Positions 24,839 to 60,811 of a stretch of DNA of 64,000 nt are shown here, piece after piece. Below the pieces are notes generated by a model. It had not been told where the DNA came from, did not search any database, and saw nothing but the letters and a program-made list of their open reading frames with translations. The stretch is from positions 82,679 to 146,678 of the forward strand of contig CAZQZN010000002.1 in assembly GCA_964597815.1 (NCBI GenBank), in the 5' to 3' direction. Position 1 is the first letter of the stretch; the number at the start of each line of letters is the position of its first letter. Source of the stretch: an uncultured bacterium (GTDB lineage Bacteria; Margulisbacteria; WOR-1; JAKLHX01). The translations under genes were made by a program, and so were the position numbers.

Positions 24839-24839
24839 T

Positions 24840-43013: not shown

Positions 43014-44190
43014 TACCTTTCATCTGCAATCCAAACAATTTTATAAATCCTTCAGCGTCTTTTTGGTCATAAACTTTATCTTCTTCAAAGGTGGCAAGTG
43101 ATGGATTATAGAGAGAATTTTGAGATTTTCGGCCAACAACCAAGCAAGAACCTTTGAAAAGCTTAACTCTTACAATGCCATTCACCTTTTCTTGAGTTGA
43201 ATCGACAAATGCATCAAGCGCCTTTCTAAGAGGGCTAAACCACTGGCCATTATAAATAATTTCAGCGTATTTTATGGATAATTTCTGCTTGAAATGAAAA
43301 ACCTCTTTTTCCAAAGTTATAGTTTCAAGTGCTCTATGAGCCGCCATTAAAACCGTTCCAGCCGGAGTTTCATAAACCCCTCTTGATTTAATCCCAACCA
43401 ACCTGTTTTCAACTATATCAACTCTGCCAACGCCGTTTTCACCGGCAATTTTATTTAATTTCGTGAGAAGATCAACAGGAGAATATTTCTTGCCATTTAA
43501 TCCAACCGGACATCCTTTTTTAAATTCTATCTCGACAAATGTTGGTTTGTTTGGCGCTTTTTCAGGAGATTTAGTCAAAACAAACATTTTTTCATCCGGC
43601 GCAACAAAAGGATCTTCAAGTATTCCACCTTCATAGCTTATGTGCCAAAGATTTCTATCCATAGAATATGGTTTTGATTTCGTTACATTAACCGGTATTT
43701 TATGTTTTTTTGCATATTCAATTTCTTCAGTTCGGGATTTGATTTCCCACTCGCGCCATGGAGCAATTATTTTTAACTCAGGCGCCAAAGACATAAAAGT
43801 AAGTTCAAATCTGACTTGATCATTGCCTTTCCCAGTTGCCCCGTGAGCAACTGCATCCGCTTTTTCTTTCTTTGCAATTTCTACCTGCCTTTTTGCAATC
43901 AACGGTCTGGCAATTGAGGTTCCAAGCAGATATTGTTCTTCATAAATCGCTCCGGCTTTTATCATTTTGAAAAGATATTCTTTTGCAAACTCTTCTTTCA
44001 AATCTTCAATGTAAATCTTGGAAGCACCGGTTTTTAGCGCTTTTTGCTTTAATCCGGAAAGTTCCTCAGCCTGCCCAACATCAGCGGCATAAGCAACAAC
44101 TTCGCAGTCGTACTTTTCTTTGATCCATTTGATCATTATTGATGTGTCTAACCCGCCTGAATATGCCAAAACAACTTTTTTTATACTCAT
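43000..44190 (-). CDS. argG: Argininosuccinate synthase
   Basis: 396 aa. [11 protein letters not shown]-loop. Confidence 0.9.
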
Positions 44191-44212
44191 AAAAGCTCTA
44201 TGCCTTTCTAAT

Positions 44213-45085
44213 TTAATTCAATAGTTTCAAAAGAAGCGCTTTCTGCACATGCAAGCGATTTTCTGCCTGATCAAAAACAATAGAATTTTTACTGTCAATT
44301 ACATCATCTGTTATTTCTTCTCCGCGGTGTGCAGGCAAGCAATGCATGATTAACACATCCTTTTTGCTAAATGATAAAAGTTTTGAGTTTACCTGATAAT
44401 TCTTAAAAATCTTCTTCCTCTTTTTTGCTTCTTTTTCCTGCCCCATAGATGTCCAAACATCGGTATAAATAACATCTGCATCTTTGACAGCTTCAAAGGG
44501 ATCATAAACTATTTTCGAATTCTCAAGTTCATAACCAATCGGACAACTTAAAACAAACTCAATTCCTAAAATCAGGCACAATTCATTAAGAGAACGCGCA
44601 ACATTATTTCCATCACCAACAAAAACAATCTTCAGATTTTTCAAGTTTTTTTTCTTTTCTTTTATTGTAAAGATGTCAGCAAGTGCTTGACATGGATGGC
44701 TGTAATCGCTTAAAGCATTAATAACAGGAACTGACGAATTGTCTTTAATCTCAATTAAATTTTGGTGTTCAAAAGTTCTCACAATTATGCAGTCAACATA
44801 TCTTGACAAAGTTTTTGAAAAATCAGATAAAGATTCTCTGCTTCCAATTCTAACTGATTCGTTGTTTAATACTACAATATGCCCGCCAAGCTGATAAACG
44901 CCTGTTTCAAAAGAAACTCTTGTCCTTGTTGAGGGTTTTTCGAAAACCAAGGCAATTGTTTTGTTAGCCAAATTCCGTCCAAAAGGGCGCTTTTTCAGTT
45001 TTGTTGAAAGTGAAAAAATTTCCTCAACTTCTTTTTTTGAAAGATCATTTATAGACAATAAATGCTTCACTGCTTGTTTAGTCAT
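44213..45085 (-). CDS. argF: Ornithine carbamoyltransferase
   Basis: 290 aa. STRTRVSFE carbamoyl-phosphate binding. The HCLP motif points to OTC and away from ATCase. Confidence 0.8.
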
Positions 45086-45159
45086 TTTGAGTATATTATG
45101 ATAACATATTTTTAATTAACTTGGCAAAAAGTTTTGAGGGGTTAAAACCTAGTAATCAT

Positions 45160-45777
45160 TTAAGTTTGTTCAATCTTCCGAACAATTCCAAAAATATTTG
45201 AAATGTGCAATGGCCCAAAATGCCTGCTATCATACATACTGTTTCTATTATCTGCCAAAACAAAAAGATGGTATTTTGGTATTCTTAATGGGCTCATATC
45301 TTTTAGAGTTCCCAAAGTGTTATATGGTTCTTCTAATATTGAATCGTTTATAAATATACGGCCATTGCTAAATGATATCTTTTCTTTAGGAAAACCTATA
45401 ACCCTTTTTATATACCCGAGATCGTCAATAGGATTCCAAAAGCATATTATTTCAAACCTTTTAGGCAATTTTGGATCAAAAAAACCGCCTAAATACTTAA
45501 CAAAATCATAATAAACTCTATCACCCTCCTTTACATTTGGAAGCATACAAGTTCTTTCAATTAAAGCGTGGCTGCCTTGATTAGGAACATTACAGTATGC
45601 TCTCTGAATGAATTTATACACCAGCCCTTTGATTTCAACATTGGGTCTTAAAATTATCCCATCATCGCTAGTTTTTCTTGCCTTATCAACCATCTTTAGC
45701 GCTAATGGATATCTTCTTTGAACAAAAGAAATAGGAACAATTTTTCTAACCAATGAATTAACAATATTTGAAAACAT
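45160..45777 (-). CDS. S26-family signal peptidase I homolog (atypical, no N-terminal TM anchor evident)
   Basis: 205 aa. Box D IKRVIGFP (Lys) and box E LADNRNSMYDSRHFGPL are present. Box B is interrupted (GSHALIERTCMLP). The N-terminal 40 aa are not hydrophobic. Confidence 0.65.
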   Translation of the reverse strand: MFSNIVNSLVRKIVPISFVQRRYPLALKMVDKARKTSDDGIILRPNVEIKGLVYKFIQRAYCNVPNQGSHALIERTCMLPNVKEGDRVYYDFVKYLGGFFDPKLPKRFEIICFWNPIDDLGYIKRVIGFPKEKISFSNGRIFINDSILEEPYNTLGTLKDMSPLRIPKYHLFVLADNRNSMYDSRHFGPLHISNIFGIVRKIEQT

Positions 45778-45902
45778 TTCAATTTGATATCGATTGGTTT
45801 TTAAATAAATTTCAGATTAACTTGGATTGGAAGGATTTTAACAGTGCAGGCAATTGACTTGACATCAAATAGAAATGCTGATTTTTATTTTCAAAAGCTT
45901 TA

Positions 45903-47015
45903 CTAGTGAGTCCCGTTATTTTTATCTATTTCAAGTTCAAGCATCTTTTTAGCCATTTTTGGCGTAAAGTTAATCAATTGACTTTCATTGTTCCACCATC
46001 TACGGGGCCACCAGTGAATGTAATTAAGATTGTTGCCGTCAACTTCAATTCCATTATTTGCAAGTAGAGTTCCTAACACTTCTGAAAATTTTTGTTTCTT
46101 TTTATAAATTTCAAGTCCCTCATAATCATTGCCAAGCAACTTTTTCTGTTTTAAAATTTGTTCTAATTCAGATCGTAAATAACCATATTCTTTTAAATTA
46201 AAAATATCATCTAATTTCACATATTTTCTAAGATTTGAAAAATACTTAAGCGAAATTATTTTATTTCCATCAATATCTTTTGTTTCATCACTTAGAAACC
46301 GGTCAATTATCGGCTTATTTAGTTTGGAAGTATCAAGATTCCAATTGTTTTCTTTTGATAAAAGCTCTATGACCCCCTTTATTACAAGAGGTTTATTTTC
46401 GTCCGAAATATCAGCAAAACCAGATTCTGGATATTCTTCCCCCATTACTCTTGTTAAGGCATTTTGATATTTCGACGTTATAAGTGATTGAATTTCTTTA
46501 AAAACTCCTCGGTTTTCATCTTTATTTAAATCATCAAATGAAATTTCAAAACTGTCTTGCAAAGTAGATAGAATACTATAATCATTTGAAGAACCTTTAT
46601 TATCAACGGTTTCCGTACTCGTAGCAGCAGAATTTTTAGAAAATTGTTCAGGATTAGCGTTGCATTGATCTTCAATAGAAGTTTCTTTTTTCACTTCACT
46701 TGATTCAGTATCAGAAGCGGTTTGTTTAACTTGGACAGAAGCCTTTTTGCATTCTTTTAATGATTCAACATCAATTCTTAATTCCATTCCCACTTTCAAT
46801 TTTTTGGGATCTATCCCACCGTTGTCGGATTGAATTTTTTTCCACATCATCTCAACATTCAACGATTTGTCTCTTAAAATGAAATCCTTCACAGCCCTTG
46901 AAATTTCATAAAGAGTATCCCCTCTCTCAACTTTTATCCTATATTGCCCATTATCCTGAACAATTCTTGGCCCTATTTTATCTGATGTATTTGCAACCCA
47001 GCTCATAATTATCAT
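45903..47015 (-). CDS. LysM-domain protein (N-terminal LysM, C-terminal region unknown)
   Basis: 370 aa. YRIKVERGDTLYEISRAV...LNVEMMWKKIQSDNGGIDPKKLKVGMELRI fits the LysM consensus. No signal peptide. Last gene of the giant-protein operon. Confidence 0.55.
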   Translation of the reverse strand: MIIMSWVANTSDKIGPRIVQDNGQYRIKVERGDTLYEISRAVKDFILRDKSLNVEMMWKKIQSDNGGIDPKKLKVGMELRIDVESLKECKKASVQVKQTASDTESSEVKKETSIEDQCNANPEQFSKNSAATSTETVDNKGSSNDYSILSTLQDSFEISFDDLNKDENRGVFKEIQSLITSKYQNALTRVMGEEYPESGFADISDENKPLVIKGVIELLSKENNWNLDTSKLNKPIIDRFLSDETKDIDGNKIISLKYFSNLRKYVKLDDIFNLKEYGYLRSELEQILKQKKLLGNDYEGLEIYKKKQKFSEVLGTLLANNGIEVDGNNLNYIHWWPRRWWNNESQLINFTPKMAKKMLELEIDKNNGTH

Positions 47016-47027
47016 CCTCCTTTGTTT

Positions 47028-50000
47028 TTACACTCCTAAAGCAGGATTGTAATGATAATAACTTTGATCAATTCTGTGATACGCCAAAATTTTATCGTCA
47101 GATAACAACTGTGCCATCTGTGGAGTAATATATTTTACATCATATTTTGTCGTTGTGAAAAACCCGGACAACCCCTTGTTTTTGGTTTTAACTTCTTTAT
47201 TGTTTGCAGACAGCAATAATCCAATCGCCTGAGATATTACAGCAGTAAATACATCATCTGACAAAGAGTCAATGTCAATATTAGAATCTAACCCCATATC
47301 TTTTAATGCCCACACCAAAGCCCCTTTTCTTTTAAGGATCTCAATAAGTTCTGAAGAAATATTTTGGTAGTTTCTTATCTGATTTACTGCTATCGTTGCA
47401 TCTTTAATGCCTGCTAATTCTTTAAGCGAAATGTTTGGCTTTATCAACTGTTGGCTTTCAAAGATATCATACAGAAATTTTACAACTACGAAGTTAAAGG
47501 AAATTAGATCTTGATCTGAAATTTGCCAATCTTTCTCTTCAGCTAATTCCTTTATAGCAAAACCTACAACAGTTGCAAATTTTTGTGGGTCAGAATTTTC
47601 AAGTTCCTCAATTGTTTTTAAGCCAAATTTTTCAAGGGCTTTTTCTAATGCACAAGAATTAGTTAATGCTTGTTTAGTTTCATCCCAAAGTTTTTTATAA
47701 CTTTTCAGTGTATAAATGTTTACATCATCTAAATTTATACCAATTCTTCTTAGAAAAGCAATTTCAGCTGGACTTTTCTTTTTGGATAAATTTGAAAGAC
47801 TAAAATAATTATTATAGAAAGCCTCCATAATAACGTTCGTATCACTTGCATTTAAATTTACCAGCATTTCCCTTGTTTCTTCAGGCAGATGTTCAAATAT
47901 AAATTTATTTGCTTCTTCTAAAAATTTTTTGTTTTCGGCAATCATATCTTCTTTTGTTATAACAGGAGAGATCCCCGTTCGTTTCCAAAATTCATCGGGA
48001 GAATATTTGTTTGCCAGAGATGGATCTTTAAAGTATTCATCCATCATATTTCTTACAATCAAATTTTCATTGGAATCTATCATTTTCACAAACTTTTGAA
48101 CAGTGCCAGAATTATAAACCAACGGCAAACGGTTTTGAAAAGTTTCTCTTTCTCCGCTTTGTTTTGATACAAGCCATCTCCAATTAGGACAAATTTTGTC
48201 AATATATTCTTCCTCAGTATAATCCTTTCTCCAAGCGCCTTTTCCAAATAATAAATTTAAATTTTGCATCTCTTGCCCAACAACTTTTTCTGTTGTGCCC
48301 TGAACCAATGTGACGCCTAAATATGTTGTGTCCTTATTTTTGTCGAGTGTATTTATAGTTGTACCCAGAATATTTTTATACCCAAGCCGTGAAAGAAGAA
48401 TTATATCTTCAGCATTAAAATTGAATGCCTTAACTTCTAATTTGCTTGAAATTTTTTGTAAAATATCTATTGCTTCCCTTTGATCTGTTATAGCTGTTCC
48501 ACCAGTATTAATTGTTCCAGATATCCATCCTCTAAGAGAATTTTTGACTCCAATTAACTTATTGCTATTTTGTTCATTTTTTGATATATCATCTAAGATT
48601 TCAAGAATCTTGTTTTGCTGATCAATAGTCTGATAAAAAACTCCTCCTAAAAACCCTATTCCGCCAGCAGTAATAGCAATCGGAGCAATTGATAATGCGG
48701 CGGCAGAAAAGCCATAAGTTAAAACCCCGGTTCCAAGACCAATTCCACCACCTCCAGCAACAGAGGAAACAAATGAAAGTGTATAATCTTTCACATTATC
48801 ATCAGTTGTACGGCCATTATTAAAACCATTCCTCGCAGCAAAGCCAGCAGAAGCTACTGTAGCAAAAACAGCTCTGGGTGAAATTGCCTTTGAAAAAGCT
48901 TGTGGCAATAGTTTTTCAACAGTAGAAGAAGCTATTGCTGATGAAAATTTGGATTGAATTATATTAGAAATATATCCAGACAATGATGAAATATGTTCAA
49001 TTGCCTGTGGATTTGAAAACAAATATTGAGACAACATATTTAAATTAGATAACCCATCAATATATTCAATCTTGCCTTCTGAAAATTGTTTTACTTTGCC
49101 GTTTTCTCCTAAATACTCCTCATTTAGCCAATTTATCAATGTTGCCTCAAAAGCTTTTCTGGAAGCCATATTTATACCTACGCCGGCAGATGTCCTTGTA
49201 ATAAATTGAGCAACCTCATTATTAAACGGAATCTTCAAAGTAGCTAATAAAATTTGTGGTGCTTCAAACAACATATTTGATACAGAGCCTTGAAGCATTT
49301 TAACAGTCATCATTTTGTAATAATATTCCCTCAAATATGGATTATTACTTGCCATTAAATCTTTATTCTTTTTGACATTTTGATCATAATATTGAGTAAT
49401 CAGCGGATCAACATCACTCTCAGCCCAAGTTATTGCATCATCCAACAATCCAGAAACAGCCATTGCCGCCAAATTAGTTCCTGTAAAATTAATTTTTTTG
49501 ATAACAGACGCTTTTTGCCATAGCTCCAAATTAGAATAATTTGTTCCCCAAATTGAGGCGCTAATATAATCTTGAATTAAATTGTCCCTTGCCGCAAAAA
49601 ATGCTCCTCTGATTGCAGATTCCCATGCCCTTTCAAATGATTGAATCCAATAATCCTTCGTTTTTATATTGCTAAAACCATTATTATATAGTTCCGGTAT
49701 TAAATTAAAAACCAGTAAATCCATTGCAAATCCCATCATGCCACCTGTATCAATTGATCTGGAAGCATCTTTTGCAATTGAATCACATAGGCCTCGTATT
49801 TTTGTGCTCATATTTTTTACTCTTTGACGAAAAGTCAACTTTCCATCGCCTTCAACTTGTTCAGTAGGAAATAAAAAACTAGTAGCAAATTCAGCTAACA
49901 CATGTGAATTTTTTCTTCTATCTTCTTCAGTCATATCGGAGAATTTTTCTCTGTAATAAATCTCAAAGATTTCATGCACAACAGCGCTGGCCAATCGTCT

Positions 50001-53000
50001 TTGGCCTTTAATTGTTAACTCCCCATTATTTATGTCAACTGCAGATTCTCTTAAATAGATTGTATAAATATTTCCTTCTTTAATATAAAAAGCATCGCCT
50101 TCAATACCCAATTTTTTGAAATCCTCATCAGTAAGCAATTTTACTGAACCTATTTTTTCATCAATATCTTTTGGTAAAAATTTGGCATCAGCAGCTTTTA
50201 ACCCATCCAAAAGCATTTTCACCATTTCAAATTTTTGAGGATCGTTAACTGGCGTAAGAGACTCTATCTTTTCTATAGGAACTTTTTCCCCAGATTGCGC
50301 TCCATCTGATTTTCGCTCTCCTTCTGGATTTTTCCCGGCAGCAATTTTTTCTACATCAGTTTCTGTTGCACCTGATCTTTTTTGCTCATCTAAATTAGGT
50401 TTATTCTTAAATTGTTCAACATCTTCCTTGCTAACAACCAACTTAATTCGATTAAAAACTCTGCCCAGATTTGACGTTCTATATAAATATTTAAAAAGTT
50501 CCTTCTGTATATTTTGCATCATTTTTTGTTTTGCAGTATTAATTGTTTCCTCAAAGATCCTTAATGCTTCCGCTTCACTTTTTTCGCCAACAAATTTTGA
50601 GTTTTGAAAATCTTTAAGTGCTTTATCAATATCCTCCATGTAAATTGCATAATGTTTTCTTAAAATTTCCTGAACTTTGTACTGCCAATAATCAACATTA
50701 GGATTTAGAGAAGGAGTGTTTGCATTTTTATGAAAAGACGGGTCGTTGCCAAAATAATTGCTATAAATTTCGAACAGCTTTTTTGAAATAACCTCTTTAG
50801 CAGTTTCCACATCTATACCTTGAAGTTCTTTTAAATCAACTGTCCGGCCGCCGAGCAATTTCGAAAATATAGTCTCAAGCTGTTGTCGCTGCTCCAAATT
50901 TATTATTTGAGAATTTTCTGTTAAGTTACACTCTTTTAATATTTGTTCCGTGCTGACTTCTGAAAACGTTTTAACAAATTCTAAACCTTTCATAGATGCG
51001 TCATACAGCTTTTTATAATCTGCCAAATATTTTTTGTTTATATCATATAATCTATTTAAAATTACTATCGCTTTTAATGCTTTTTCCCTGTGCCTTGCTA
51101 GCGCAATATTAACAAGATTATCTATAGCTTCTCTTGCTTCTTTTGTTTTTCCTTCTCGCGAAAGATTATCTATAGCTTCTCTTAGTATTCTCCTTTCGTC
51201 CTCTGTTAATATTGAATATATATAATCTTCTGGTGAAGAGTAAACAATTGAAGAGCCCCTATCTCCTTGTCTTCCACTTCTTTTAACTTTTTGTGTAGTC
51301 CATCTTTGAGAAGAATCCAACTCGGTTGTTATTACGTGCAAACCGCCATTACTTTTTGAATTGTCGTAAAGTTTTATATTATCCAACAGTGTTTCTATTT
51401 CTCCTAACTTTATATCAGTACCTCTGCCAGCAGTTGTTGCAACCGTAATAACATAAGGTTCACCTGCATTTTCAATTATTTTTTGTCCCTCCTGTTCAAC
51501 ATTTTCAGCCGTTAATACCTGGATTTTTATTTTTCCTTTCTCACCTTTATTTAATCTTTCTTCGATGAGTTGTGCTATTTTTTTAGCCTCATCAATTGTA
51601 GACGCTGCTACTAGAATCGGTCTCCCTTTTTTAGCTGTTGAAATCGCGTCATCAACAATAGCGTTCATCTTACTTTCGCTATCCGAAAAAAACTTTGTTG
51701 GATTTCTATCAACAGAAACAAACAAACTTTTCAATCTTTTCAATCTTTCAGATATGTCCCCATTTTTAGGGCTAATTTCTCCTTCAATTTCTTTTACAAT
51801 TTCATCTATTAAACTCTTAGTGAGATTAGGATCCCCAGTACAATTGATTATCTTTATATTTTCTAAAGGATCATCAATTAATTTTTCTACACTATTTTCT
51901 TTGCTTTGTATGCGTTGCTTTATATATTCTTTTATTTCTTTTTTCACAACGTCAATTTTTGATTTGTCAGTTAATTCGAATTCCTTCAAATAGTTTGGTA
52001 ATTTTGCTAATTGTGCATCAGAAAGATAGCTTCTAATTATTTCCCAATCTTCAATTAATGTGCCTGAGAAGCCCCCAATTCTCTCGTATTGCTCTAAAAA
52101 ACCTTTAATTACTATTGATGCAAGAATCTTTTGAGGAGGGACAATTTTCAATCCCTCAACAAGTCTAATTGCTTCATCCATTCCATCTTCCCACCTCATA
52201 CCGTGCATAGGGTGCCCTTCATCGTTGATAATTATTATGTTACCCCCCTCAACTTTATATTGATATTGTTTAGAAAGAGGACTATTTGGGTCGTTTTTTA
52301 TTATATAAGCTACTGCAATATTTTCGATTCTATTAATTTCTTCAACCAAACTTCCCGATTTGGAAATTCTTTCCTTTAAAAATTCTTTCCCTTTATCAGT
52401 CAATTTCCCCTCTTTATCAATATACTCCTTACTAATTTCACCATTCTTAAGAAAAAGTTTCTTAAAATTTTTATAAGAATTTTTCCAAAGTTTTTCGTAT
52501 TGGCCTTCAAGTATCTTTTGAGTAACGGGATTTAATTCCAATTGTCCCCCTGAAACTATAAAAGGTGTTGTTGCTTTATCAATCAACAAACTATCTGCTT
52601 CATCAACGAGAATTGCCTTGTTTTTTGCATCAATTATCTCTGGTGGTATTTCCCCCGAAATTGCATCAAAAATCAATGTTTCTGCTCCAACAACAATTGG
52701 ACATTTATAAGCTTCAATTTTCTCTTCAAGAGACATGTTGCTTGTAATAATGGCAAAATCTTTACCTTTTACCAACCCCATCCTTTCAGCTTCACCTGCC
52801 CAATCCCTTACTAATGCATCATTTGAAGTCATAACATGAATGCCTTTTCCTTGTTTTCTAAGATGTTTGGCAAACAAAACTCCAATTATAGTTTTCCCTT
52901 GACCACAATCAATATTCAGAAAAGAATTTTTCCCATTTTCTAATGCTTTAAGTGCTTGAATCTGATTATCATGTAATTCAACAATAGGTTTCCCATTTTT

Positions 53001-56000
53001 ATCTTTTGGCACTAATGACTGCCAGACTTTTCTATCTTCATCATCAATATGAGGAGGATCTATAACAGATTTTCGGATTTCATTTTCATCAGGAGTGGTT
53101 TTAAAATCTACACTTTTTAAAGTTGATTTTTTTAATTGTCCTAATTGGTCTTTTATTTTTTCATTTGAATCATAATCTATAGGCAAATACAAAACTGCTG
53201 GCTGTTCCGAATGAATATTTGATGCTTCACTCGTTCTTAACTGAACAGCTGGATCTTTTATGCCTTCTAAAAGCCTTATTTCAACTATTTTCACAACAAC
53301 ATCATTACCAAATTCATCCCTAACAACTAATTTAAGAGAATTGTCATTTGAATCATAAAACTGGCTCAATATTGATTTCCCATTCTTTGTATCATATAGT
53401 AAATTTAGAAGTTTAAAATTAGCGCTTAAAGATCCCTCACCAGTAGAAGCAACTTTTGAAATGTCGCCATCAATCAATATAATAACGCCATTGTTGCTGT
53501 TTTTGTCAACATCTCCCTTATTTTCAACAAAACTTTTCGTAAAGATTTCTTGTTCAAATGTAAAAGATGAAGCAGATACACGCAATGATGCTGCGGCTTT
53601 TTTTGTTGTTTCATTGGCTTCTCTCCTCAAGTTTATTCGCTTTTTAAAATCACTTATATGATGCCGAGACCTGTTTGCTGCCCAATCTAAAGAATAATCT
53701 AATTTGGCAACAACTTTAGAAGCAATTCCATTAGATTCATACGCCTTATTATATAGAAATCCAATAGGATTAATAAAAGTATAATAGGGTACCTTGACCA
53801 AGCTACCAACTCTTGTTTTTGCAATTTTATTATAAATTTTTTGTTCAAATCCAATCCCCGGCAATCCTTTAACATAGTTTTCTATGAATGGTATTTTGCT
53901 GAGTAAACGAACTACTTCAGTATAGGGTTGAATTGTTCTGCCCCAAATCGAGTTGTAACCACCCATCATCGTGAAAAAATTAGCAGCCCAAAACATTCCT
54001 AAAAATGTAGATATATTTCCTTCTTTTAATTCCTGAATTGACTGCATATACCAAAGCGGCGGATATCTATACAAAAAGAAAGCTATTGGAACTTTTACAA
54101 GTGAGCTGGAAATTTCAGACAAAGATTTACGCCCCAATAAAGCTTTTGTAATATCCGAAGCAGCAGAAATTGGTAAACCAAGAAATATATAATATGGTAT
54201 AAGTATTCTCATTTGAACTTGCATAGCAAATATTTGTTTCGGCACCTCACCCCAATTTTTTTGTAAATCATCATAAATAGCTTTCATCGCAGAAATTATT
54301 GGATGGTTCCGATCTTTTTCTGATAATTTATCCCAAATTTGCTTAAAAGTTACTGGATCAAACATTTGAAAATAATGGCCAAAAAAACCGGAACGGTTCA
54401 ATCCGTTTTTTATATTAGAGGAAAATGTATCGCCGAAACTAATACTCTCGCTTTGTAATAGTTCTTTTCTGTATTCTAAAAGAACCTTATAGATATCATC
54501 TTTTGGCTTAATATCCAATGGTTTAGAATAAGAATTTTCATCTAGGTTTTTCCCTATAATTGAAATACAATTACCCAGTTTATCCATTAATTCATTTGGA
54601 AAGCCAATTTTTTCAGCAAGGTCTTTCAATAACAATAAATCTTCATAAGTCAACTTATTTAATGAATCTGATTTTTTATTAGGAGACAAATTTAAACAAA
54701 GAGTTTTTAAGTCCGCCACAACAGAATTTGGATCATATTCTTTGAATATACTTAAAAAATTGTTTAGCCCTATTATTTCAAACAGACTATGGCCTGTCAT
54801 TTTGATATTTGGCATATCAAAATTAAAAGATCCATCTTCCAACTTATAAGTGAACATTATTACACTTGAAATAGCTTGTTTAATATCATTTATTGTTTTT
54901 ATTTGACTCTCATTTAAACCAAGCCCTTCAAACTCCGATGTCGTCAGGTTTAGAGTGGCAAATCCTCTCAACTTCCATAATTCATTCAATTTATCATTGC
55001 CCATATCAGAAATGATTTTATCTGCATTCTTAAAAACACAAATCATGTCTTGAAAGCTTCGTTTGAATCCAAAATTATCAGTAATGTTTATGCCAAAAAG
55101 ATTTTTGTTCAGTTCAGAAGCAATCTTTTCAATGTAGTTTACAAAATTACCGCTGGATATTTTTCCGCTTAACCAGTTGTAAAGATCAGGAGTAATTGTA
55201 TAATTTTGCAAAAAGTCATTTATCGCATCCCTTTGAGCAATTAACGATTGTTTCTTTTTTTCGCCTAAATTATTCTTTTGTAATTGCTGATTGATGTCTT
55301 CCAGTGTTCCTAAAAGTCCTGTTTCTTTAGCATAAAGGTTTTTCAATGCTATTACTTGATTTTTCTCCGCTACTAAAGTTGGGGCATTTGAAATGGGCGG
55401 ATCAACACGCCACCACTCGTTTCCAAATTCAACTGGTATATGATTAGTAATTTTTATGTAGTTTAACAAAGGAGCAAACACGTCGGGATGAGCTGTTAGT
55501 TTGTCAATATTAAATTCAGTTCCATCTTCAAATTTATTAATAAACTCTAATATACTCTTCGATTCTTCTTCCGATAATCCAACTTCAACATCAGGTCTTA
55601 TTGTCCAATAAACCAAATTCATCTTATCTTTATATGGAGATTCTGATAAAGAACTAATGTGTTGTTTAAAAGCAATAAGTTCATCGTTATTGAAAACAAT
55701 TTTCTCTTTTTCTCCTTTATTCATTCCGACTTGCAAAAGTTTGTTTAAAACGTTCTTGATTTTTTCTTCTCTACAATTTTTTATGTCTTCAGAAATTTGT
55801 TCTAACAATAATTCATCTGCGCTTAAATCATAATGAACATAAGGTTTATTAACTTTTAATTTTTCTGCCAAATACGCTATATCTTCTTTTGTTAAGTAAT
55901 TTGGGAAAATATTTGCTGTATTAGGAGAACTAGGAATATTTATTCCTTGATCTTTGAGAATTTTCCTAAATAAAGATAATGGAGCTATCAAACTTGTCTG

Positions 56001-57677
56001 CTGTTGTGTATGAGTGCTGATTGTTGACTCACTCTTTATTTCTGGATCAGGAACAACCTTTACATTTTCCGGATCTATATCCGAAGGTCTAATAGGATTG
56101 AGTGTTTCTAGATCTATTATTATCGTAGCATTACTTGACTTCTTTAGCTGTTCAATAGGCCCTACTTTTTTAGGATCAAACGCAAGGTATATTTGAGGTG
56201 AGTTAATCATGCTAATTAAAAAGTTATAATCCTCAGGTGATATAGTTCTTGGGTTGGCATCATTATCACCCACATCAATTGTCAATATTTTTTCCAATCT
56301 ATCGTATCTTGTCTTGTTTTGTGGATCAATATTTCTTAAATAGTTTATTATTGCGGAATTAATATTTTCATAGTTTAGCCCACTTATTTTCTTCTTCATT
56401 TCTACTGCCAAATCCGAAGCAAAAAATCTTGAATAAACAGTATATCTATATCCTTGGACATTCTCTTTGGAGTATTTTTGAAGTTCTTGGACTAATTTAT
56501 CATTCACTTCTAACAATAAAATCGTTTCATTCTGTGAATTGCCTCTTGAAGAAGTTAAAAAATCTCTCTTATTTTCAGAAATAAAACCCAACAAAGCAAA
56601 GGCAGTTTCATTATCAAATTTGCCATCAATTTCATGTGAAGGATGCAAATAAACAAATTTAGTATATGGGGATTTAATGCTTTTAAGAATTTTCTGAATG
56701 TTTTTAACCCACTCCTGACTTTGAGATAAATTAAAACCAGCATATTTTATATCAACTTTTTCATTTTTTTCATTATCCTTCTCAACGATTGACACACTTA
56801 AAATTAAGGCCCTATCGCTTTTAAAAAAACCAAGCAACTTATTAAAATCTTCTTCAGGATTTCCTTCAGAGTTTGTCTTTTTATATAATTCAATCATTCT
56901 TGGTTTCGCTGATTGTAGATAGTTGACACAAGCGTCCTTCCCTTGTTGAAATAATTTCTCAAAAGCTCTCTTTTTTATTTCTTCCAATTCTATTCCAGCA
57001 CTAATTTTGCTTCGAATTTCATCAGGTATATTTGTATCGTTTAATAACTTTTTAACTTCATCTATTTTCCCCAACTCATGAAGTTGAGCAATCAATATCA
57101 TCATCATTTTATTGAATGATTCTTGAGTAATCTTCTTTCCATTTGAATATTCCTTCAATTTTTCTATCGCTTCGTTTATCCCTTTATCATCAGCTAACTT
57201 CATAATCTCTTTTTGAGTCTCCAAATCATTAATGCGATTATTGATAAGTTCCTTACCATACTTTAACAGCTTGTTTATTTTTTCGTCTGAAAGCAATTTT
57301 TTCAGTTCTGCAATGAAACTATCAATACTTTGATCATCAAATTTTTGAGATTTTATTTTTGAATCAACATAAAGCAACTCATATTGTTTTCTACCATCTT
57401 CAGTCAAATAATAATCTGGATAATTTTTAAATATTTCCTCTAATAAATTTACTACCTCATTATATTTGTGGGAATTATATAATTCACCTACAAATCTTAG
57501 TTTGCTTGTAATTTGTTCCTCGAGAAACTCAAATGGCCTTTCTATAGAGCTTATTCCACCAGATTTGATCGGTCTTTCGTTAGAGGATGGAGGGGTAGAT
57601 ATTTCTCTTCGATCACCTGGCTTTGGGACAGCAGGGGGTAAATCAAAACTTTTATTTACTTGTGATATCCCTGTCAT
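47028..57677 (-). CDS. Giant (3549 aa) multidomain protein with an internal complete SecA-like ATPase core (NBD1-PPXD-NBD2-HSD)
   Basis: Single uninterrupted ORF. Residues about 1560-2250 carry SecA-like motifs. These are Walker A NIDCGQGKT, GKGIHVMTSNDALVRDW, Walker B/DEAD-box region AILVDEADSLLIDKATTPFIVSG, a PPXD-like segment (GHPMHGMRWEDGMDEAIRLVEGLKIVPPQKILASIVIKGF), GFSGTL, NBD2 ATTAGRGTDIKLG and GGLHVITTELDSSQRWTTQKVKRSGRQGDRGSS. The flanking regions of about 1550 aa and about 1300 aa have no recognised domains. No N-terminal signal peptide. Confidence 0.85.
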   Translation of the reverse strand: MTGISQVNKSFDLPPAVPKPGDRREISTPPSSNERPIKSGGISSIERPFEFLEEQITSKLRFVGELYNSHKYNEVVNLLEEIFKNYPDYYLTEDGRKQYELLYVDSKIKSQKFDDQSIDSFIAELKKLLSDEKINKLLKYGKELINNRINDLETQKEIMKLADDKGINEAIEKLKEYSNGKKITQESFNKMMMILIAQLHELGKIDEVKKLLNDTNIPDEIRSKISAGIELEEIKKRAFEKLFQQGKDACVNYLQSAKPRMIELYKKTNSEGNPEEDFNKLLGFFKSDRALILSVSIVEKDNEKNEKVDIKYAGFNLSQSQEWVKNIQKILKSIKSPYTKFVYLHPSHEIDGKFDNETAFALLGFISENKRDFLTSSRGNSQNETILLLEVNDKLVQELQKYSKENVQGYRYTVYSRFFASDLAVEMKKKISGLNYENINSAIINYLRNIDPQNKTRYDRLEKILTIDVGDNDANPRTISPEDYNFLISMINSPQIYLAFDPKKVGPIEQLKKSSNATIIIDLETLNPIRPSDIDPENVKVVPDPEIKSESTISTHTQQQTSLIAPLSLFRKILKDQGINIPSSPNTANIFPNYLTKEDIAYLAEKLKVNKPYVHYDLSADELLLEQISEDIKNCREEKIKNVLNKLLQVGMNKGEKEKIVFNNDELIAFKQHISSLSESPYKDKMNLVYWTIRPDVEVGLSEEESKSILEFINKFEDGTEFNIDKLTAHPDVFAPLLNYIKITNHIPVEFGNEWWRVDPPISNAPTLVAEKNQVIALKNLYAKETGLLGTLEDINQQLQKNNLGEKKKQSLIAQRDAINDFLQNYTITPDLYNWLSGKISSGNFVNYIEKIASELNKNLFGINITDNFGFKRSFQDMICVFKNADKIISDMGNDKLNELWKLRGFATLNLTTSEFEGLGLNESQIKTINDIKQAISSVIMFTYKLEDGSFNFDMPNIKMTGHSLFEIIGLNNFLSIFKEYDPNSVVADLKTLCLNLSPNKKSDSLNKLTYEDLLLLKDLAEKIGFPNELMDKLGNCISIIGKNLDENSYSKPLDIKPKDDIYKVLLEYRKELLQSESISFGDTFSSNIKNGLNRSGFFGHYFQMFDPVTFKQIWDKLSEKDRNHPIISAMKAIYDDLQKNWGEVPKQIFAMQVQMRILIPYYIFLGLPISAASDITKALLGRKSLSEISSSLVKVPIAFFLYRYPPLWYMQSIQELKEGNISTFLGMFWAANFFTMMGGYNSIWGRTIQPYTEVVRLLSKIPFIENYVKGLPGIGFEQKIYNKIAKTRVGSLVKVPYYTFINPIGFLYNKAYESNGIASKVVAKLDYSLDWAANRSRHHISDFKKRINLRREANETTKKAAASLRVSASSFTFEQEIFTKSFVENKGDVDKNSNNGVIILIDGDISKVASTGEGSLSANFKLLNLLYDTKNGKSILSQFYDSNDNSLKLVVRDEFGNDVVVKIVEIRLLEGIKDPAVQLRTSEASNIHSEQPAVLYLPIDYDSNEKIKDQLGQLKKSTLKSVDFKTTPDENEIRKSVIDPPHIDDEDRKVWQSLVPKDKNGKPIVELHDNQIQALKALENGKNSFLNIDCGQGKTIIGVLFAKHLRKQGKGIHVMTSNDALVRDWAGEAERMGLVKGKDFAIITSNMSLEEKIEAYKCPIVVGAETLIFDAISGEIPPEIIDAKNKAILVDEADSLLIDKATTPFIVSGGQLELNPVTQKILEGQYEKLWKNSYKNFKKLFLKNGEISKEYIDKEGKLTDKGKEFLKERISKSGSLVEEINRIENIAVAYIIKNDPNSPLSKQYQYKVEGGNIIIINDEGHPMHGMRWEDGMDEAIRLVEGLKIVPPQKILASIVIKGFLEQYERIGGFSGTLIEDWEIIRSYLSDAQLAKLPNYLKEFELTDKSKIDVVKKEIKEYIKQRIQSKENSVEKLIDDPLENIKIINCTGDPNLTKSLIDEIVKEIEGEISPKNGDISERLKRLKSLFVSVDRNPTKFFSDSESKMNAIVDDAISTAKKGRPILVAASTIDEAKKIAQLIEERLNKGEKGKIKIQVLTAENVEQEGQKIIENAGEPYVITVATTAGRGTDIKLGEIETLLDNIKLYDNSKSNGGLHVITTELDSSQRWTTQKVKRSGRQGDRGSSIVYSSPEDYIYSILTEDERRILREAIDNLSREGKTKEAREAIDNLVNIALARHREKALKAIVILNRLYDINKKYLADYKKLYDASMKGLEFVKTFSEVSTEQILKECNLTENSQIINLEQRQQLETIFSKLLGGRTVDLKELQGIDVETAKEVISKKLFEIYSNYFGNDPSFHKNANTPSLNPNVDYWQYKVQEILRKHYAIYMEDIDKALKDFQNSKFVGEKSEAEALRIFEETINTAKQKMMQNIQKELFKYLYRTSNLGRVFNRIKLVVSKEDVEQFKNKPNLDEQKRSGATETDVEKIAAGKNPEGERKSDGAQSGEKVPIEKIESLTPVNDPQKFEMVKMLLDGLKAADAKFLPKDIDEKIGSVKLLTDEDFKKLGIEGDAFYIKEGNIYTIYLRESAVDINNGELTIKGQRRLASAVVHEIFEIYYREKFSDMTEEDRRKNSHVLAEFATSFLFPTEQVEGDGKLTFRQRVKNMSTKIRGLCDSIAKDASRSIDTGGMMGFAMDLLVFNLIPELYNNGFSNIKTKDYWIQSFERAWESAIRGAFFAARDNLIQDYISASIWGTNYSNLELWQKASVIKKINFTGTNLAAMAVSGLLDDAITWAESDVDPLITQYYDQNVKKNKDLMASNNPYLREYYYKMMTVKMLQGSVSNMLFEAPQILLATLKIPFNNEVAQFITRTSAGVGINMASRKAFEATLINWLNEEYLGENGKVKQFSEGKIEYIDGLSNLNMLSQYLFSNPQAIEHISSLSGYISNIIQSKFSSAIASSTVEKLLPQAFSKAISPRAVFATVASAGFAARNGFNNGRTTDDNVKDYTLSFVSSVAGGGGIGLGTGVLTYGFSAAALSIAPIAITAGGIGFLGGVFYQTIDQQNKILEILDDISKNEQNSNKLIGVKNSLRGWISGTINTGGTAITDQREAIDILQKISSKLEVKAFNFNAEDIILLSRLGYKNILGTTINTLDKNKDTTYLGVTLVQGTTEKVVGQEMQNLNLLFGKGAWRKDYTEEEYIDKICPNWRWLVSKQSGERETFQNRLPLVYNSGTVQKFVKMIDSNENLIVRNMMDEYFKDPSLANKYSPDEFWKRTGISPVITKEDMIAENKKFLEEANKFIFEHLPEETREMLVNLNASDTNVIMEAFYNNYFSLSNLSKKKSPAEIAFLRRIGINLDDVNIYTLKSYKKLWDETKQALTNSCALEKALEKFGLKTIEELENSDPQKFATVVGFAIKELAEEKDWQISDQDLISFNFVVVKFLYDIFESQQLIKPNISLKELAGIKDATIAVNQIRNYQNISSELIEILKRKGALVWALKDMGLDSNIDIDSLSDDVFTAVISQAIGLLLSANNKEVKTKNKGLSGFFTTTKYDVKYITPQMAQLLSDDKILAYHRIDQSYYHYNPALGV

Positions 57678-57690
57678 AAAAATACCTCAG

Positions 57691-59307
57691 CTAACTATTT
57701 AAAAATTTCATCGCTTTCTCGTAATCATCTAATTGGCCTTTAAATGGGTTGTCAAAACTGTTAAAATAAGCGCTTAACTTTTTGAAAAACTCAGAATTGT
57801 CTTTATTTAATTCAACTAAAGATTTCATACTTTCAGTAATTTCACTATTTTTACTTTTTGCATTTTCTCTATCGGCTTCAGGTTTATTAGAATCATTCAA
57901 AATTTTTAAGTTTTCATTAAATTGGCGAATCAAACTTACGAAATTTTGCACACTTGCATCAACAGATGTAGTTTTTGTCACTTCAGTTTTTAACTGCTCA
58001 TACATTTTTTGTAGTTCTTTGGCATATGGATTATCAGCAAACCTTATCAAATTATAAGCTGCTTCAAATTTCAAGTTAATTTTGTTTTCATCTAATAAAC
58101 CTTCTTTTTCTAAAATCTCAAAGAACCTTTTAACTTTTTCTTCTGGATTTGTCAACTTGTCAAACTCATCCTTGTGTTTTTCTCTAATTTCATCAAGTTT
58201 GCTCTCTCCAATTTCATTAATTAAAGAGTCCATTACATAACTAGAAACTGTACTATTCATCAACGATGCCAAAACAATTTTTGTTTGTTCATCTTTTGAA
58301 AGTTCTGAAATTTTTCTACCATCAATGAGCGGCGCATTACTTCCAATATTTACTATTAAATTGAAGTACTTTTCAAATATATTTTTCGTGATCTTATAAT
58401 CACCAAGAGTAAAAACGATAGGAGAATTATCAATATAAGGATTATTTTCAATTGGGTTGGTTGGATCAATGGCCTGTGGTCTAATTCTTGATGTTGTCAA
58501 ATTATCTTTCGCAGCATTAGCAACAGATGAATCATTAGCAGTTGATCCAACTAGCAAACTTCTATTATCAGTTGTTACTTCTATCCCATATAACTCAAAA
58601 ATATTCACATTTATTTTGTTTGATAAAATTAGTGCCGTTAGAATTGTCTTTTGATCGCTTTCTTCAATATCTTTGAAATCTTTGGCTTTTAATCTCTGGC
58701 TTATTTTATCTAAAATCAGCGAAATGTTTGTATTATTGCTGCCCAAAATCTGAATGGCTTTTTGATAAGGATCACCGCTTAGTTTAATCCATTGCTGGTC
58801 AATGGCCGACTTTATACCTTCATATTCAGAGATGCTTATTTTTACATAATTTCCTCCACTTTTGTTATAAAGTTGTGCGGTTCTTACCAAATCTTGTGTA
58901 TTGCTTTGGTCTAATCCGATTAATTGCATAAAACCAACAACATTGCTGAAAAACAGCTCTATCTCTTGTTGTGTCAGCTTTCCATCTGATTGAGAATCCC
59001 TTTCAGATGGAACTTTCATTCCGCTGTCTATTAAATCAAAAAGTTCTTTTGAAACATTTGCGCCAGCATTTCTTAAAGATTCAAGAGTAATGTTATTTTG
59101 ATCTATTTTTTCGGCATTTCCGCCAAAAATTGTTATGAAAGAGCCAATAATCGAAGTTTCATTCCCTTGTTTGCTTTGAGCAATAGCTTCTGGCCTACTA
59201 ACATCTTGTGGTACTATAACTGTTGTATCGCGTTCAAAAGATGGTGTTTGGGAAACATACGTACCACTATTAACTGTTGGTGCTGATTGTATAGCTTCTG
59301 CTACCAT
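57691..59307 (-). CDS. Hypothetical protein (538 aa) with an EF-hand-like Ca-binding loop
   Basis: No signal peptide. The loop DSQSDGKLTQQE (aa 104-115) fits the EF-hand D-x-[DNSQ]-x-D-G-x-[ILV]-x-x-x-E pattern. 13-nt gap to the giant gene. Confidence 0.55.
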   Translation of the reverse strand: MVAEAIQSAPTVNSGTYVSQTPSFERDTTVIVPQDVSRPEAIAQSKQGNETSIIGSFITIFGGNAEKIDQNNITLESLRNAGANVSKELFDLIDSGMKVPSERDSQSDGKLTQQEIELFFSNVVGFMQLIGLDQSNTQDLVRTAQLYNKSGGNYVKISISEYEGIKSAIDQQWIKLSGDPYQKAIQILGSNNTNISLILDKISQRLKAKDFKDIEESDQKTILTALILSNKINVNIFELYGIEVTTDNRSLLVGSTANDSSVANAAKDNLTTSRIRPQAIDPTNPIENNPYIDNSPIVFTLGDYKITKNIFEKYFNLIVNIGSNAPLIDGRKISELSKDEQTKIVLASLMNSTVSSYVMDSLINEIGESKLDEIREKHKDEFDKLTNPEEKVKRFFEILEKEGLLDENKINLKFEAAYNLIRFADNPYAKELQKMYEQLKTEVTKTTSVDASVQNFVSLIRQFNENLKILNDSNKPEADRENAKSKNSEITESMKSLVELNKDNSEFFKKLSAYFNSFDNPFKGQLDDYEKAMKFLNS

Positions 59308-59324
59308 ATTTTACTCCTCCTGTA

Positions 59325-59504
59325 TCAATTTTCTCCAATAAAGACTACAGCTACGTATTGGTTTTGAGAATCACTATCAAAACCACTTTCAACTAAATCG
59401 TTATTCCCATACAAACTAACATTTTTATAGTTAAAGTCTTCATTATCGTCTGCATCTGATATGAGTTGCTCCAAAAAATTTACATCGTATTTTTGTTCAC
59501 ACAT
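59325..59504 (-). CDS. Small acidic protein (59 aa), first gene of the giant-protein operon
   Basis: Start taken at the internal ATG, preceded by GGAAGGGGA. The upstream GTG extension in the ORF track lacks an RBS. Sequence MCEQKYDVNFLEQLISDADDNEDF... Confidence 0.4.
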   Translation of the reverse strand: MCEQKYDVNFLEQLISDADDNEDFNYKNVSLYGNNDLVESGFDSDSQNQYVAVVFIGEN

Positions 59505-59825
59505 ATAATTTCCCCTTCCATTGTTAATAGCCCAGTTTAGCAGGGGTGACATGCCTGTTGAAAATGCCACCCCTAGTAAACTTTATGTAATTTCTCTTTT
59601 TCATTTTCAAACTCCTCATAAACAAAAAATCGAATCCAACAGGCAAGTCTTCGATTATTTATTTTGTTGTTTCTTCAGTTTCAAGTAATAATCGTTACAA
59701 GAGGCATAAAACTTGCATAAAAAATAAGGTAAAAAATTATGAATGTAAGTTGCGTGTAAAAACAAACAATTTTTAGTTAATAAGTGGCTTCAAAAAAGAT
59801 CCAGTTATGCGATTACTAATGTTTT

Positions 59826-60719
59826 CTATTTCTTAAAAATGTTATATTTGCGAATCAATTTTGCCGGATGATAGCTCATCTTTGCCTTTCTAAGCCCTAA
59901 ATGGCCCATATCTTGTTCTCGATTTACATATTCGCAATCAGGAAAAGAATTTTTTAAAAATTCTCGATTAATGATTTGGGCAGCTCCCCTAATTAAAGGA
60001 TCTGACTTTTCAATATGCACTACAGCTGTGTTACTTGTCAATTTTTCGCCAAGGCTAAACCCTACAATTTTACTATTGGAAATGATTACTCCCCCTTTCA
60101 ATCCAAGGATATCTTTGTTCTTTAAGGCAATTTCCACAGCATTGGCTTCACACTCTATTAAAGGATATTCATCTGTAATGGTTGTTTTTTTCGTTTTGCA
60201 CCAAATTTCGTTCAGTTTTAGACATTCATAAATGTGAGATTTATCCATTTTTTCGTACTTAAAATCGTTGTTTTTTACAAAGTAATTTATGTGGTTCCTT
60301 TTTGCATCATATTTTCTTCCTTTTAATTCAATCAAATCACGGCTTGAATAAAGATAATCGAATTGATCCCGATCTTCTTTAATAACAAAATTTTCTGGCT
60401 CTTTCAAAAAAGATATAAACTGCTCATCTGCTCTTATTACTGCTTTGGAATGACTCAAACATATATTTAAAACTTCATCAGAATTTTCCCCAATTCCAAG
60501 CGGCATCATAAAGTATTCGTTCTTGTCCGGCCCTATAACTAATGGGCATAAAAAATCACCAATAATGGTTAATTGTGTTTTATCAATATTTTTCCAAATG
60601 TAGTAGTTTGCAAAAGTATGGTCAGAAATAAAAATGGGTCGGGCAAAATAATACTTTTCAAAGTCGTTTTTATGCTCAATTTTTAAAGGCACAAAATCAG
60701 GATAATAAGGAATACTCAC
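59826..60719 (-). CDS. DUF2156-family protein (standalone MprF/LPG-synthase C-terminal-like domain)
   Basis: 297 aa. Overall pattern and the C-terminal GHLGLRKAKMSYHP segment resemble the lysyl-phosphatidylglycerol synthase C-terminal domain family. Tentative. Confidence 0.45.
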   Translation of the reverse strand: MSIPYYPDFVPLKIEHKNDFEKYYFARPIFISDHTFANYYIWKNIDKTQLTIIGDFLCPLVIGPDKNEYFMMPLGIGENSDEVLNICLSHSKAVIRADEQFISFLKEPENFVIKEDRDQFDYLYSSRDLIELKGRKYDAKRNHINYFVKNNDFKYEKMDKSHIYECLKLNEIWCKTKKTTITDEYPLIECEANAVEIALKNKDILGLKGGVIISNSKIVGFSLGEKLTSNTAVVHIEKSDPLIRGAAQIINREFLKNSFPDCEYVNREQDMGHLGLRKAKMSYHPAKLIRKYNIFKK

Positions 60720-60811
60720 AATAAACTGATTTTAACATAATCATCGACTTCACCAAAACATTTTAGAAAGTTCTTTGACTTATAAATACAGCTTTGTTAA
60801 TATATTGACAA

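Follow-up and report, generated by a model that had tools for sequence, protein, structure and literature searches.

Gene cluster and its conserved core

In the present study, we analysed a gene cluster built around a giant protein of 3549 amino acids (aa) with an internal SecA-like ATPase, which lies in a 64-kb stretch of DNA from an uncultured bacterium (contig CAZQZN010000002.1). The whole stretch is called the window, and coordinates given without another label refer to it. The cluster is encoded on the minus strand and begins with the gene of a small acidic protein (59325-59504; 59 aa from its ATG, while the mechanical open reading frame (ORF) from GTG 59570 gives 81 aa). It is followed by the genes of a medium protein with no known domain (57691-59307; 538 aa), of the giant (47028-57677; no signal peptide) and of a LysM protein (45903-47015 as a 370-aa ORF). 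For the LysM gene, the start at ATG 47006 is likelier than the 370-aa start; it lies 9 nt after an AGGAGG sequence, is the start used in the NCBI record and gives 367 aa (45903-47006). The gene of a paralogue of the S26 signal peptidases (45160-45777; 205 aa) is located 125 nt beyond the LysM gene on the same strand.

The original prediction, made from the DNA letters, described the first four of these genes as a tight operon. The four ORFs on the minus strand were confirmed, with gaps of 17 nt between the small and medium genes, 13 nt between the medium and giant genes and 21 nt between the giant and LysM genes (12 nt with the 370-aa start). A Shine-Dalgarno sequence is found in front of each gene, and no intrinsic terminator was predicted between the four. 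In the region, terminator-like sites occur at chance level (6 observed against 7.5 expected), and the only one on the minus strand lies inside the giant gene. Co-transcription of a module is supported indirectly by the short gaps, the ribosome-binding sites, 4-nt overlaps in relatives, the recurring gene order and a leader placed only before the small gene. When the neighbourhoods of related giants were compared, the small and medium genes were found conserved with the giant, whereas a LysM gene was absent after the giant in 7 of 10 loci. Hence, what stands of the proposed four-gene operon is a three-gene core (small, medium, giant), and the LysM gene is a lineage-specific accessory, because it follows the giant in only 3/10 loci.

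The absence of Sec- or Tat-like N-termini, also claimed from the letters, was examined by a Kyte-Doolittle hydropathy scan only, and all four proteins were found to lack a hydrophobic stretch at the N-terminus. No segment reaching 1.4 occurs before residue 1158 of the giant, and none occurs in the other three proteins. Each ORF begins at the first start codon after a stop, therefore a signal peptide hidden by a wrongly placed start is excluded.

The order small, medium, giant was seen in all eight loci in which the upstream side is visible: the window, L003, L004/L005, L006, L009, L010 and L101, with a divergent version in L007. Three loci carry an extra gene of 865-898 aa that overlaps the start of the giant by 4 nt (the overlaps include L003 and L006). 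The arrangement is more than chance, because it is found again in independent metagenome contigs with protein identities of just 28-45%.

The small first protein is acidic, as had been noticed (pI 4.05, net charge -11.5), and both of its ends are conserved, with MCE[QND]... at the start and ...AVVF[IL]G[ET]N at the end. Homologues with both motifs are present in L003, L004, L006, L009 and L010, and the L101 copy retains the MCEQ start. These features fit a dedicated partner of the giant. The 81-aa form was rejected, since its extension (MPLLLFK/MSPLLNW) corresponds to the 3' arm and U-tract of the second hairpin of the leader described below, and seems conserved because the leader is conserved at the nucleotide level.

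In the medium protein, the N-terminal ~240 aa form a family-wide domain and the C-terminal half is variable; across loci, the protein ranges from ~436 to 780 aa. By BLAST, residues 9-243 are 29-45% identical to L3_707, L4_594, L6_700, L9_781 and L10_750. L101_436 gave weaker matches to the medium proteins of L003, L004, L009 and L010, and the medium protein of L007 has weak homology to the N-domain. Neither the 59-aa nor the 538-aa protein has a match in Pfam or NCBIfam. The EF-hand-like loop that had been noticed in the 538-aa protein is present, but it is not a conserved feature: the ligand positions 1, 3, 5 and 6 vary among six homologues (K..E.NP in L004), and no Pfam EF-hand was matched. 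The EF-hand reading was therefore rejected.

Architecture of the giant protein and its family

The SecA-like ATPase occupies residues ~1550-2420 of the giant (50418-53030, minus strand) and was delineated by Pfam, by alignment to PDB sequences, and by AlphaFold2 (AF2) modelling with Foldseek. It appears to consist of nucleotide-binding domain 1 (NBD1), the preprotein cross-linking domain (PPXD), an insert of ~110 aa, NBD2 and a long scaffold-like helix. Pfam SecA_DEAD (PF07517) was matched at 82.8 bits against a cut-off of 24.6 and P-loop_SecA (PF21090) at 94.8 bits against 27. PF00270 was also matched, and the PPXD family (PF01043) scored 20.9 bits, just below its cut-off of 23.5. The alignment with E. 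coli SecA is unbroken over residues 72-393, spanning the PPXD, and a second block covers residues 416-590 (NBD2; E 5e-43); SecA chains of the PDB were matched at E 5e-41 to 5e-43. A Walker A motif (GQGKT) is found at giant residue 1592 and a SecA-type Walker B motif, ILVDEADSLLIDKATTPFIVSG, at 1689. The arginine-finger motif AGRGTD is intact, and TTAGRGTDIKLG and RSGRQGDRGSS align to E. coli SecA. With these motifs the motor would be expected to act as an ATPase.

The giant appears to keep the domain order of SecA and SecA2 (NBD1, PPXD, NBD2, long helix) and has their Walker A, Walker B (DEAD) and AGRGTD motifs. The structures most similar to its motor model are crystal structures of SecA and SecA2. 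In Foldseek searches with the AF2 model of the motor, which was built from 35 SecA sequences, the top 36 PDB matches were all SecA or SecA2. About 900 columns were aligned to SecA structures of 775 residues, but the mean predicted local distance difference test score (pLDDT) of the model is 63 and the root-mean-square deviation is high. Unlike SecA and SecA2, the motor is embedded within a far longer protein, has the insert between NBD1 and NBD2, and lacks a detectable Pfam SecA_SW domain (PF07516, helical scaffold and wing) and C-terminal zinc-binding tail. In the model, a helix of 62 residues follows NBD2, and the alignment envelope of NCBIfam PRK09200 extends to position 776 of 789, so a scaffold-like element seems to be retained.

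The NCBIfam SecA models gave 120-179 bits against cut-offs of 725-1493, which is 4-8 times below these equivalog cut-offs, and the nearest stand-alone SecAs are only 22-38% identical to the motor. Because of these low scores and identities, the motor is a SecA homologue and not a SecA orthologue. It is internal to a protein of 3549 aa, and not a stand-alone SecA of 750-1100 aa.

The C-terminal profile of the giant retrieved 18 proteins with HMMER from 1.84 billion representative proteins, and the giant itself, located on an NCBI contig of 181,104 bp, forms a singleton cluster in a collection of 15 billion proteins. The full-length homologue P0116 (3369 aa) has 32.6% identity to the giant over residues 188-2420, the motor included. 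P0111, P0112, P0114, P0115 and P0125 (3668-4613 aa) have C-terminal modules in common with the giant. Full-length members measure 3.4-4.6 thousand amino acids (kAA), and L101 holds a split form of 2.8 kAA. A single P-loop, GxGK[ST], is located at an equivalent central position in all seven full-length giants examined, and the accompanying D-E pair is kept wherever that stretch was read, even where the motor is beyond Pfam detection. P0115 is positive for SecA_DEAD in Pfam and has strong matches to P0111 (E 1e-159) and P0112 (E 4e-128). Owing to the retained P-loop and D-E pair and to this homology, a SecA-derived motor, variably degenerate, is a feature of the family, and the window copy is the most SecA-like. 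The same observations ruled out the idea that the type-B giants (P0111, P0112) have no motor. A search with residues 1-1200 against a word-indexed database found no match, although the full-length homologue P0116 exists, and this negative therefore marks the sensitivity limit of the index. Scans of genome and metagenome contigs with degenerate patterns from the C-terminal alignment also gave no match. In addition, a near-identical fragment of 1.8 kb is present in JGI metagenome 3300009503, an identifier that appears in the data-availability correction to a study of hydrothermal-sediment metagenome-assembled genomes (MAGs) (PMC9599585).

Outside the motor, the giant has no match in Pfam, NCBIfam, PADLOC or the PDB. 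A Pfam search of nine sub-segments at E <=1 gave nothing credible beyond SecA and LysM, PADLOC matched none of five proteins, and PHROGs matched only the SecA-like and S26 parts. The other parts, including an amphipathic helical region, were resolved by family comparison and by a second AF2 model of the regions beyond the motor (pLDDT 68). Before the motor, an aromatic and mildly hydrophobic block (residues ~1140-1290; 53808-54260, minus strand) was recognised by its conservation with P0116 and carries FLYRYPPLWY and NFFTMMGGYNSIWGR. Residues 1201-1300 are 56% identical to P0116, against ~30% overall. It is uncertain whether this block spans the membrane, because its Kyte-Doolittle values are just 1.3-1.5.

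Directly after the motor, an alpha/beta domain (residues ~2500-2600; 49878-50180, minus strand) carries the motif H-E-x-x-E ... H (AVVHEIFEIYY ... SH), which is invariant in 9/9 aligned family sequences. AF2 confidently predicts a beta-sheet and helix domain for this region, and its profile gave no match in the PDB or Pfam. From its motif, the domain may be a zincin-like protease variant.

The top hydropathy peaks of the giant (1.4-1.8) belong to an uncharged helical hairpin rich in Gly and Ala, GGGGIGLGTGVLTYGFSAAALSIAPIAITAGGIGFLGGV, at residues ~2960-3022 (48612-48800, minus strand). Six of the seven giants have an equivalent peak at 430-650 residues from the C-terminus; in P0116, whose product ends early, the distance is ~250 residues. 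The hairpin profile module is common to most family matches. The hairpin is likely a membrane anchor or insertion element, and through it the giant would be held at the membrane.

The all-alpha C-terminal domain (residues ~3150-3549; 47031-48230, minus strand) has an invariant PNWR...F motif in the alignment columns and AF2 pLDDT values of 80-94, and Foldseek found no significant match to it in the PDB. It is the most widely shared module of the family, and in L101 it is encoded apart, as a 518-aa gene. Hairpin and PNWR module also occur together in P0118 (2584 aa; L102 6296-14050), in which no P-loop was detected and whose neighbours are NurA, a KaiC-like ATPase and DUF835, a setting that looks archaeal. 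The C-terminal module is therefore wider in range than the giant family, though very rare.

Downstream slot, leader and chromosomal site

The slot behind the giant was compared over 10 loci (window, L002, L004/L005, L006, L007, L008, L009, L091, L101 and L103). It holds a LysM gene in the window, L004/L005 and L091, and a Cys-type S26 gene directly in L002 and L006. An ankyrin-repeat protein or a relative of its N-terminal domain is encoded there in L008 and L009, a 179-aa gene on the opposite strand in L007, the split-off C-terminal domain of the giant in L101 and an unrelated 330-aa ORF in L103. The ankyrin-repeat protein of L008 (13969-15318; 449 aa) is related in its N-terminal ~250 aa to the 229-aa gene of L009 (22388-23077) in the same slot. 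A 206-aa gene located elsewhere in L006 (2304-2924) is also related to this part.

The LysM identity of the last gene of the window cluster held, as residues 28-81 of its product (domain at 46773-46934) pass the Pfam gathering threshold (PF01476, 27.2 against 20.9 bits). The domain carries an unusual insert of ~11 residues and is 41-44% identical among the window, L004 and L091, while the proteins are otherwise unlike one another; the C-terminal 230 aa of the window protein have no known relatives. The single domain above threshold resembles that of LysM peptidoglycan-binding proteins. Unlike these, the window protein has no signal peptide or anchor, and it differs from them in its insert and C-terminal domain. 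All three LysM proteins lack a signal peptide and are encoded directly after the giant on the same strand, at spacings of 21 nt (window), 74 nt (L004) and ~10 nt (L091). Those of L004 and L091 have Pro-rich repeats, which are common in envelope-spanning proteins. A further LysM match, in L095, belongs to a phage tail module and was set aside as unrelated.

The 205-aa protein had been described as an atypical soluble S26 paralogue downstream on the same strand, which proved right, and in addition its catalytic Ser is replaced by Cys. Pfam S26 was matched at 82 bits. Aligned to PDB 4nv4, the protein has C77 where the catalytic Ser would be and retains K124 and the GDNR..DSR box. Hence, the protein agrees with type I signal peptidases (LepB/SipS) in its fold, its catalytic Lys and this box, and differs from them in the Cys at the nucleophile position and in lacking an N-terminal anchor. 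It has no hydrophobic segment, and its N-terminus is amphipathic and charged. The S26 proteins of L002 (4295-4915) and L006 (21201-21911) have the same CMLP motif, likewise with Cys for Ser and the Lys retained, and are also without anchor; in L006, the last 29 nt of the giant gene also belong to the S26 gene. The S26 gene accompanies the giant in 3/10 loci only and is therefore, as the LysM gene, an accessory. Because of the Cys for Ser and the missing anchor, the protein is probably not the housekeeping signal peptidase, and it might act in processing within the module.

Upstream of the small gene, and before that gene only, we found a conserved non-coding leader of ~225 nt (59505-59730, minus strand) by a six-locus alignment. 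Its copies are located at L003 1800-1993, L004 7745-7938, L006 4861-5054, L009 4500-4693, L010 1932-2125 and L101 ~4120-4290, and it is partly present in L007. Mean column identity between the window and five loci is 75%, against only 30-45% identity of the downstream proteins. In the window, the leader motif occurs once, against 0 expected occurrences, and Rfam gave no match for it. Within the leader lie a promoter-like block, ATGCAAGTTT...ACGAtTATtAC, and two hairpins resembling terminators, hairpin 1 (AAAGAATCGAA[GACTTGCCTGTTGGA]TTCGATTTTTT) and hairpin 2 (GGGGCGGCAT[TAACAACAGGC]ATGCCGCTCCCC). A U-tract follows hairpin 2 in five loci but not in the window. RNAalifold predicts both hairpins from only four distinct sequences, and hairpin 2 of the window has a compensatory change from C-G to U-A; the RNA structure is accordingly to be taken as a lead only. 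The loops carry invariant sequences that are perfect reverse complements of each other, TGCCTGTTG in hairpin 1 and CAACAGGCA in hairpin 2. This complementarity suggests a kissing-loop or an alternative-pairing attenuator. By its position, the leader sets the small gene apart as the beginning of a regulated unit.

All retrieved loci lie in the same chromosomal neighbourhood as the window, with LPG_synthase_C and an SNF transporter on one flank and argF, argG, argH, ndk, TPM phosphatase, LemA and M17 peptidase on the other. The island (window 43000-62368) was compared with L004, L006, L007, L008, L009 and L101. Between loci, flanking proteins are 57-74% identical, against 28-34% for the giant, 29-45% for the medium N-domain and 44-45% for S26. 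The giant locus is thus a fast-evolving and hypervariable island at a fixed site, and the faster divergence of the giant relative to the flanks is as expected of an exposed or interaction protein. L007 comes from a MAG labelled Candidatus Saganbacteria (GCA_026387835.1), and the locus is rare and confined to Saganbacteria-like bacteria. A scan of GTDB species representatives for LPG_synthase_C found a close copy in two contigs. L010 has the module, and in L011, the more distant one, no long ORF was found within 10 kb of LPG_synthase_C, as judged by ORF lengths only.

At this site, a 35-aa ORF right after the SNF transporter gene recurs in L004 (7597-7704), L006 (308-415), L009 (669-776) and L101 (1183-1290); the L004 copy, the sole one read, is hydrophobic and reads MNLYGWFFLIVSWAFIITLAGFCFYKVF...

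Proposed function and alternative explanations

Internal SecA motors have been described before. In a preprint by West-Roberts et al, giants of Omnitrophota and some Actinobacteria contain embedded divergent SecA DEAD and preprotein-binding domains, and these domains are already proposed to export accessory proteins or the giant that carries them (bioRxiv 10.1101/2023.11.21.568195). A 2026 survey lists an architecture group with PF07517 (bioRxiv 10.64898/2026.06.07.730766). The Omnitrophota giants share with the window giant the great length, the internal divergent SecA DEAD and preprotein-binding domains, the lack of a signal peptide and of linked SecYEG, a normal SecA presumed elsewhere, membrane association, which is probable in the window giant, and very fast sequence evolution. 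Unlike the Omnitrophota giants, which are given as 10-147 kAA with numerous transmembrane (TM) helices, the window giant has 3.5 kAA, one hydrophobic hairpin and no adhesion, dockerin, glycosyl-hydrolase or C39 domains. Its host is also different, being Saganbacteria-like as judged by the syntenic L007. The Omnitrophota motors are reported to be without scaffold and wing, whereas the window giant appears, in its model, to retain a scaffold-like helix. The small and medium partners, the HExxE...H domain and the leader do not figure in the passages of these two papers that a term search retrieved, and our literature search on Saganbacteria together with SecA found nothing relevant. What is new here is therefore a rare, unannotated family with its partners, while the idea of self-export by an embedded SecA is already in the literature.

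We tentatively propose, as a reading that could well prove wrong, that the cluster is a self-contained accessory machine for translocation or insertion. In such a machine, the hairpin would tether the giant at the cytoplasmic membrane, and the motor on the cytoplasmic side would hydrolyse ATP and pass a polypeptide without signal peptide across the membrane or into it, presumably by way of SecYEG. The polypeptide moved would be parts of the giant itself or co-encoded partners. In the lineage of the window the LysM protein would be one of these partners and, once in the periplasm, would bind peptidoglycan; the variable downstream genes (LysM, ankyrin and others) would supply exchangeable cargoes or adaptors. 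Processing of the products might fall to the HExxE...H domain or to the Cys-type S26 paralogue. The giant would then resemble SecA2 systems in being an extra motor for a few special substrates. As no more than an analogy, the autolysin p60 of Listeria, which bears LysM, is exported by SecA2 (PMC4010754). The translocation reading is supported by the conserved core and leader, the SecA-like motor with its intact motifs, the hairpin, the signal-less LysM partners (two of them with Pro-rich repeats), the fast divergence of the giant and the published precedent. Self-export by the cluster is plausible.

Several observations weigh against this proposal. The SecA scores are far below the family cut-offs (TIGR00963, 179 bits against 800), and in the part of the 64-kb window covered no secY, secE or secG was seen, so the locus shows no linkage to them. 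The giant has just one convincing hydrophobic element, and a hairpin of two helices leaves both flanks on the same side, so the giant could be wholly cytoplasmic; an unusual kind of N-tail translocation would be required to export its first 1,100 residues. Several relatives have degenerate motor motifs (DESH, DEPH), hence ATP-driven translocation may not be the conserved function, and the LysM gene, absent from most loci, is not an essential cargo gene. In addition, the hydropathy scan is a crude substitute for SignalP or DeepTMHMM, and since the loci share their neighbourhood, part of the conservation of gene order may reflect common descent.

Some of these points speak directly for the strongest alternative, namely that the giant is a membrane-associated but wholly cytoplasmic machine with a re-purposed SecA motor, working as an unfoldase, a remodeller or a scaffold for envelope biogenesis or regulation. 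The LysM protein would then act inside the cell on a ligand other than peptidoglycan or on a precursor. Cytoplasmic LysM proteins exist, such as Kbp/YgaU of E. coli. The predicted cytoplasmic placing of both hairpin flanks, the lack of signal peptides throughout and the degenerate motifs of relatives agree with this explanation. The 2026 Omnitrophota survey likewise reads giants with TM segments only as anchored at the cytoplasmic face (bioRxiv 10.64898/2026.06.07.730766). On the other hand, the PPXD, a domain specific to the handling of polypeptides by SecA, appears to be retained, an internal housekeeping machine would not usually diverge so fast, and the Pro-rich repeats of the L004 and L091 LysM proteins are of a type usual in envelope proteins. 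We consider this alternative rather unlikely. Should it be correct, the module would show how a SecA motor can be taken over for a different task.

It is unlikely that the cluster is a secreted effector or toxin-like system directed against other cells (host, prey or competitor), with the hairpin inserting as a glycine zipper into the target membrane, the small acidic protein serving as chaperone or immunity partner, and the swappable LysM and ankyrin proteins as co-effectors. Such a role would suit the rapid divergence of a hypervariable locus at a fixed site, the ankyrin-repeat gene at the LysM position in L008 with related genes in L009 and L006, the small size and acidity of the partner and, by a general analogy, the resemblance of the Gly-rich uncharged hairpin to membrane-inserting elements of toxins and effectors. 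But no toxin, adhesin or secretion-system domain was found in the Pfam sub-segments, PADLOC or PHROGs. Genes of type III, IV or VI secretion systems are not adjacent, and the type IV pilus genes are more than 20 kb away. Furthermore, the variable part of polymorphic toxins is their C-terminal tip, but in the giant it is the last 1,100 aa that are best conserved. A metabolic study of Saganbacteria reportedly does not describe them as host-associated, which also bears against an effector.

Least probable of all is that the giant has no functional tie to the LysM gene, and perhaps none to the S26 gene, and that these genes only fill a variable stretch before argF, tightly spaced as packing in a compact genome: the rarity of LysM after the giant (3/10 loci), the unrelated genes or empty slot of other loci, the 125 nt between LysM and S26 and the lack of anything shared by the three LysM proteins outside their LysM domain would agree with this, but LysM lies immediately downstream on the same strand in 3/3 cases, its insert-bearing domain (41-44% identical) is more conserved than the giants, and the S26 gene overlaps the stop codon of the giant in L006.

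The translocation or insertion machine thus remains our tentative preference. Its fullest form is doubtful, that is, an undescribed export or insertion system in which a SecA motor is fused into a giant membrane-anchored substrate or platform, with signal-less cargo from adjacent genes (LysM in the window, ankyrin in other loci), processing by the HExxE...H domain or the Cys-type S26 protein and control by a leader RNA through kissing or alternative hairpins. How signal-less proteins of many thousand residues reach or cross the membrane is a question that the work on Omnitrophota giant genes has raised. The family described here is a much smaller version from a different phylum, with 3.5 kAA, one motor, one hairpin and two conserved partners, and its small size and intact motor motifs bring the self-export hypothesis within reach of ordinary constructs. 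Three unannotated elements are also of interest of their own: the HExxE...H domain, the anchor-less S26 peptidase with Cys for Ser, and the leader RNA.

Elsewhere in the window, at 13994-26144 (plus strand) and 7794-13418 (minus strand), there are AcrB-type and TolC-type efflux genes and a type IV pilus cluster that encodes a PilB-like ATPase, PilC, a PilT-like ATPase, a PilM-PilN fusion and a secretin. The organism is therefore diderm. Three further ORFs have no Pfam match, at 35735-36940 (minus strand, 401 aa), 36886-38184 (minus strand, 432 aa) and 5050-7536 (plus strand, 828 aa), and the last of these has a cluster mate at 90% identity in a JGI metagenome.

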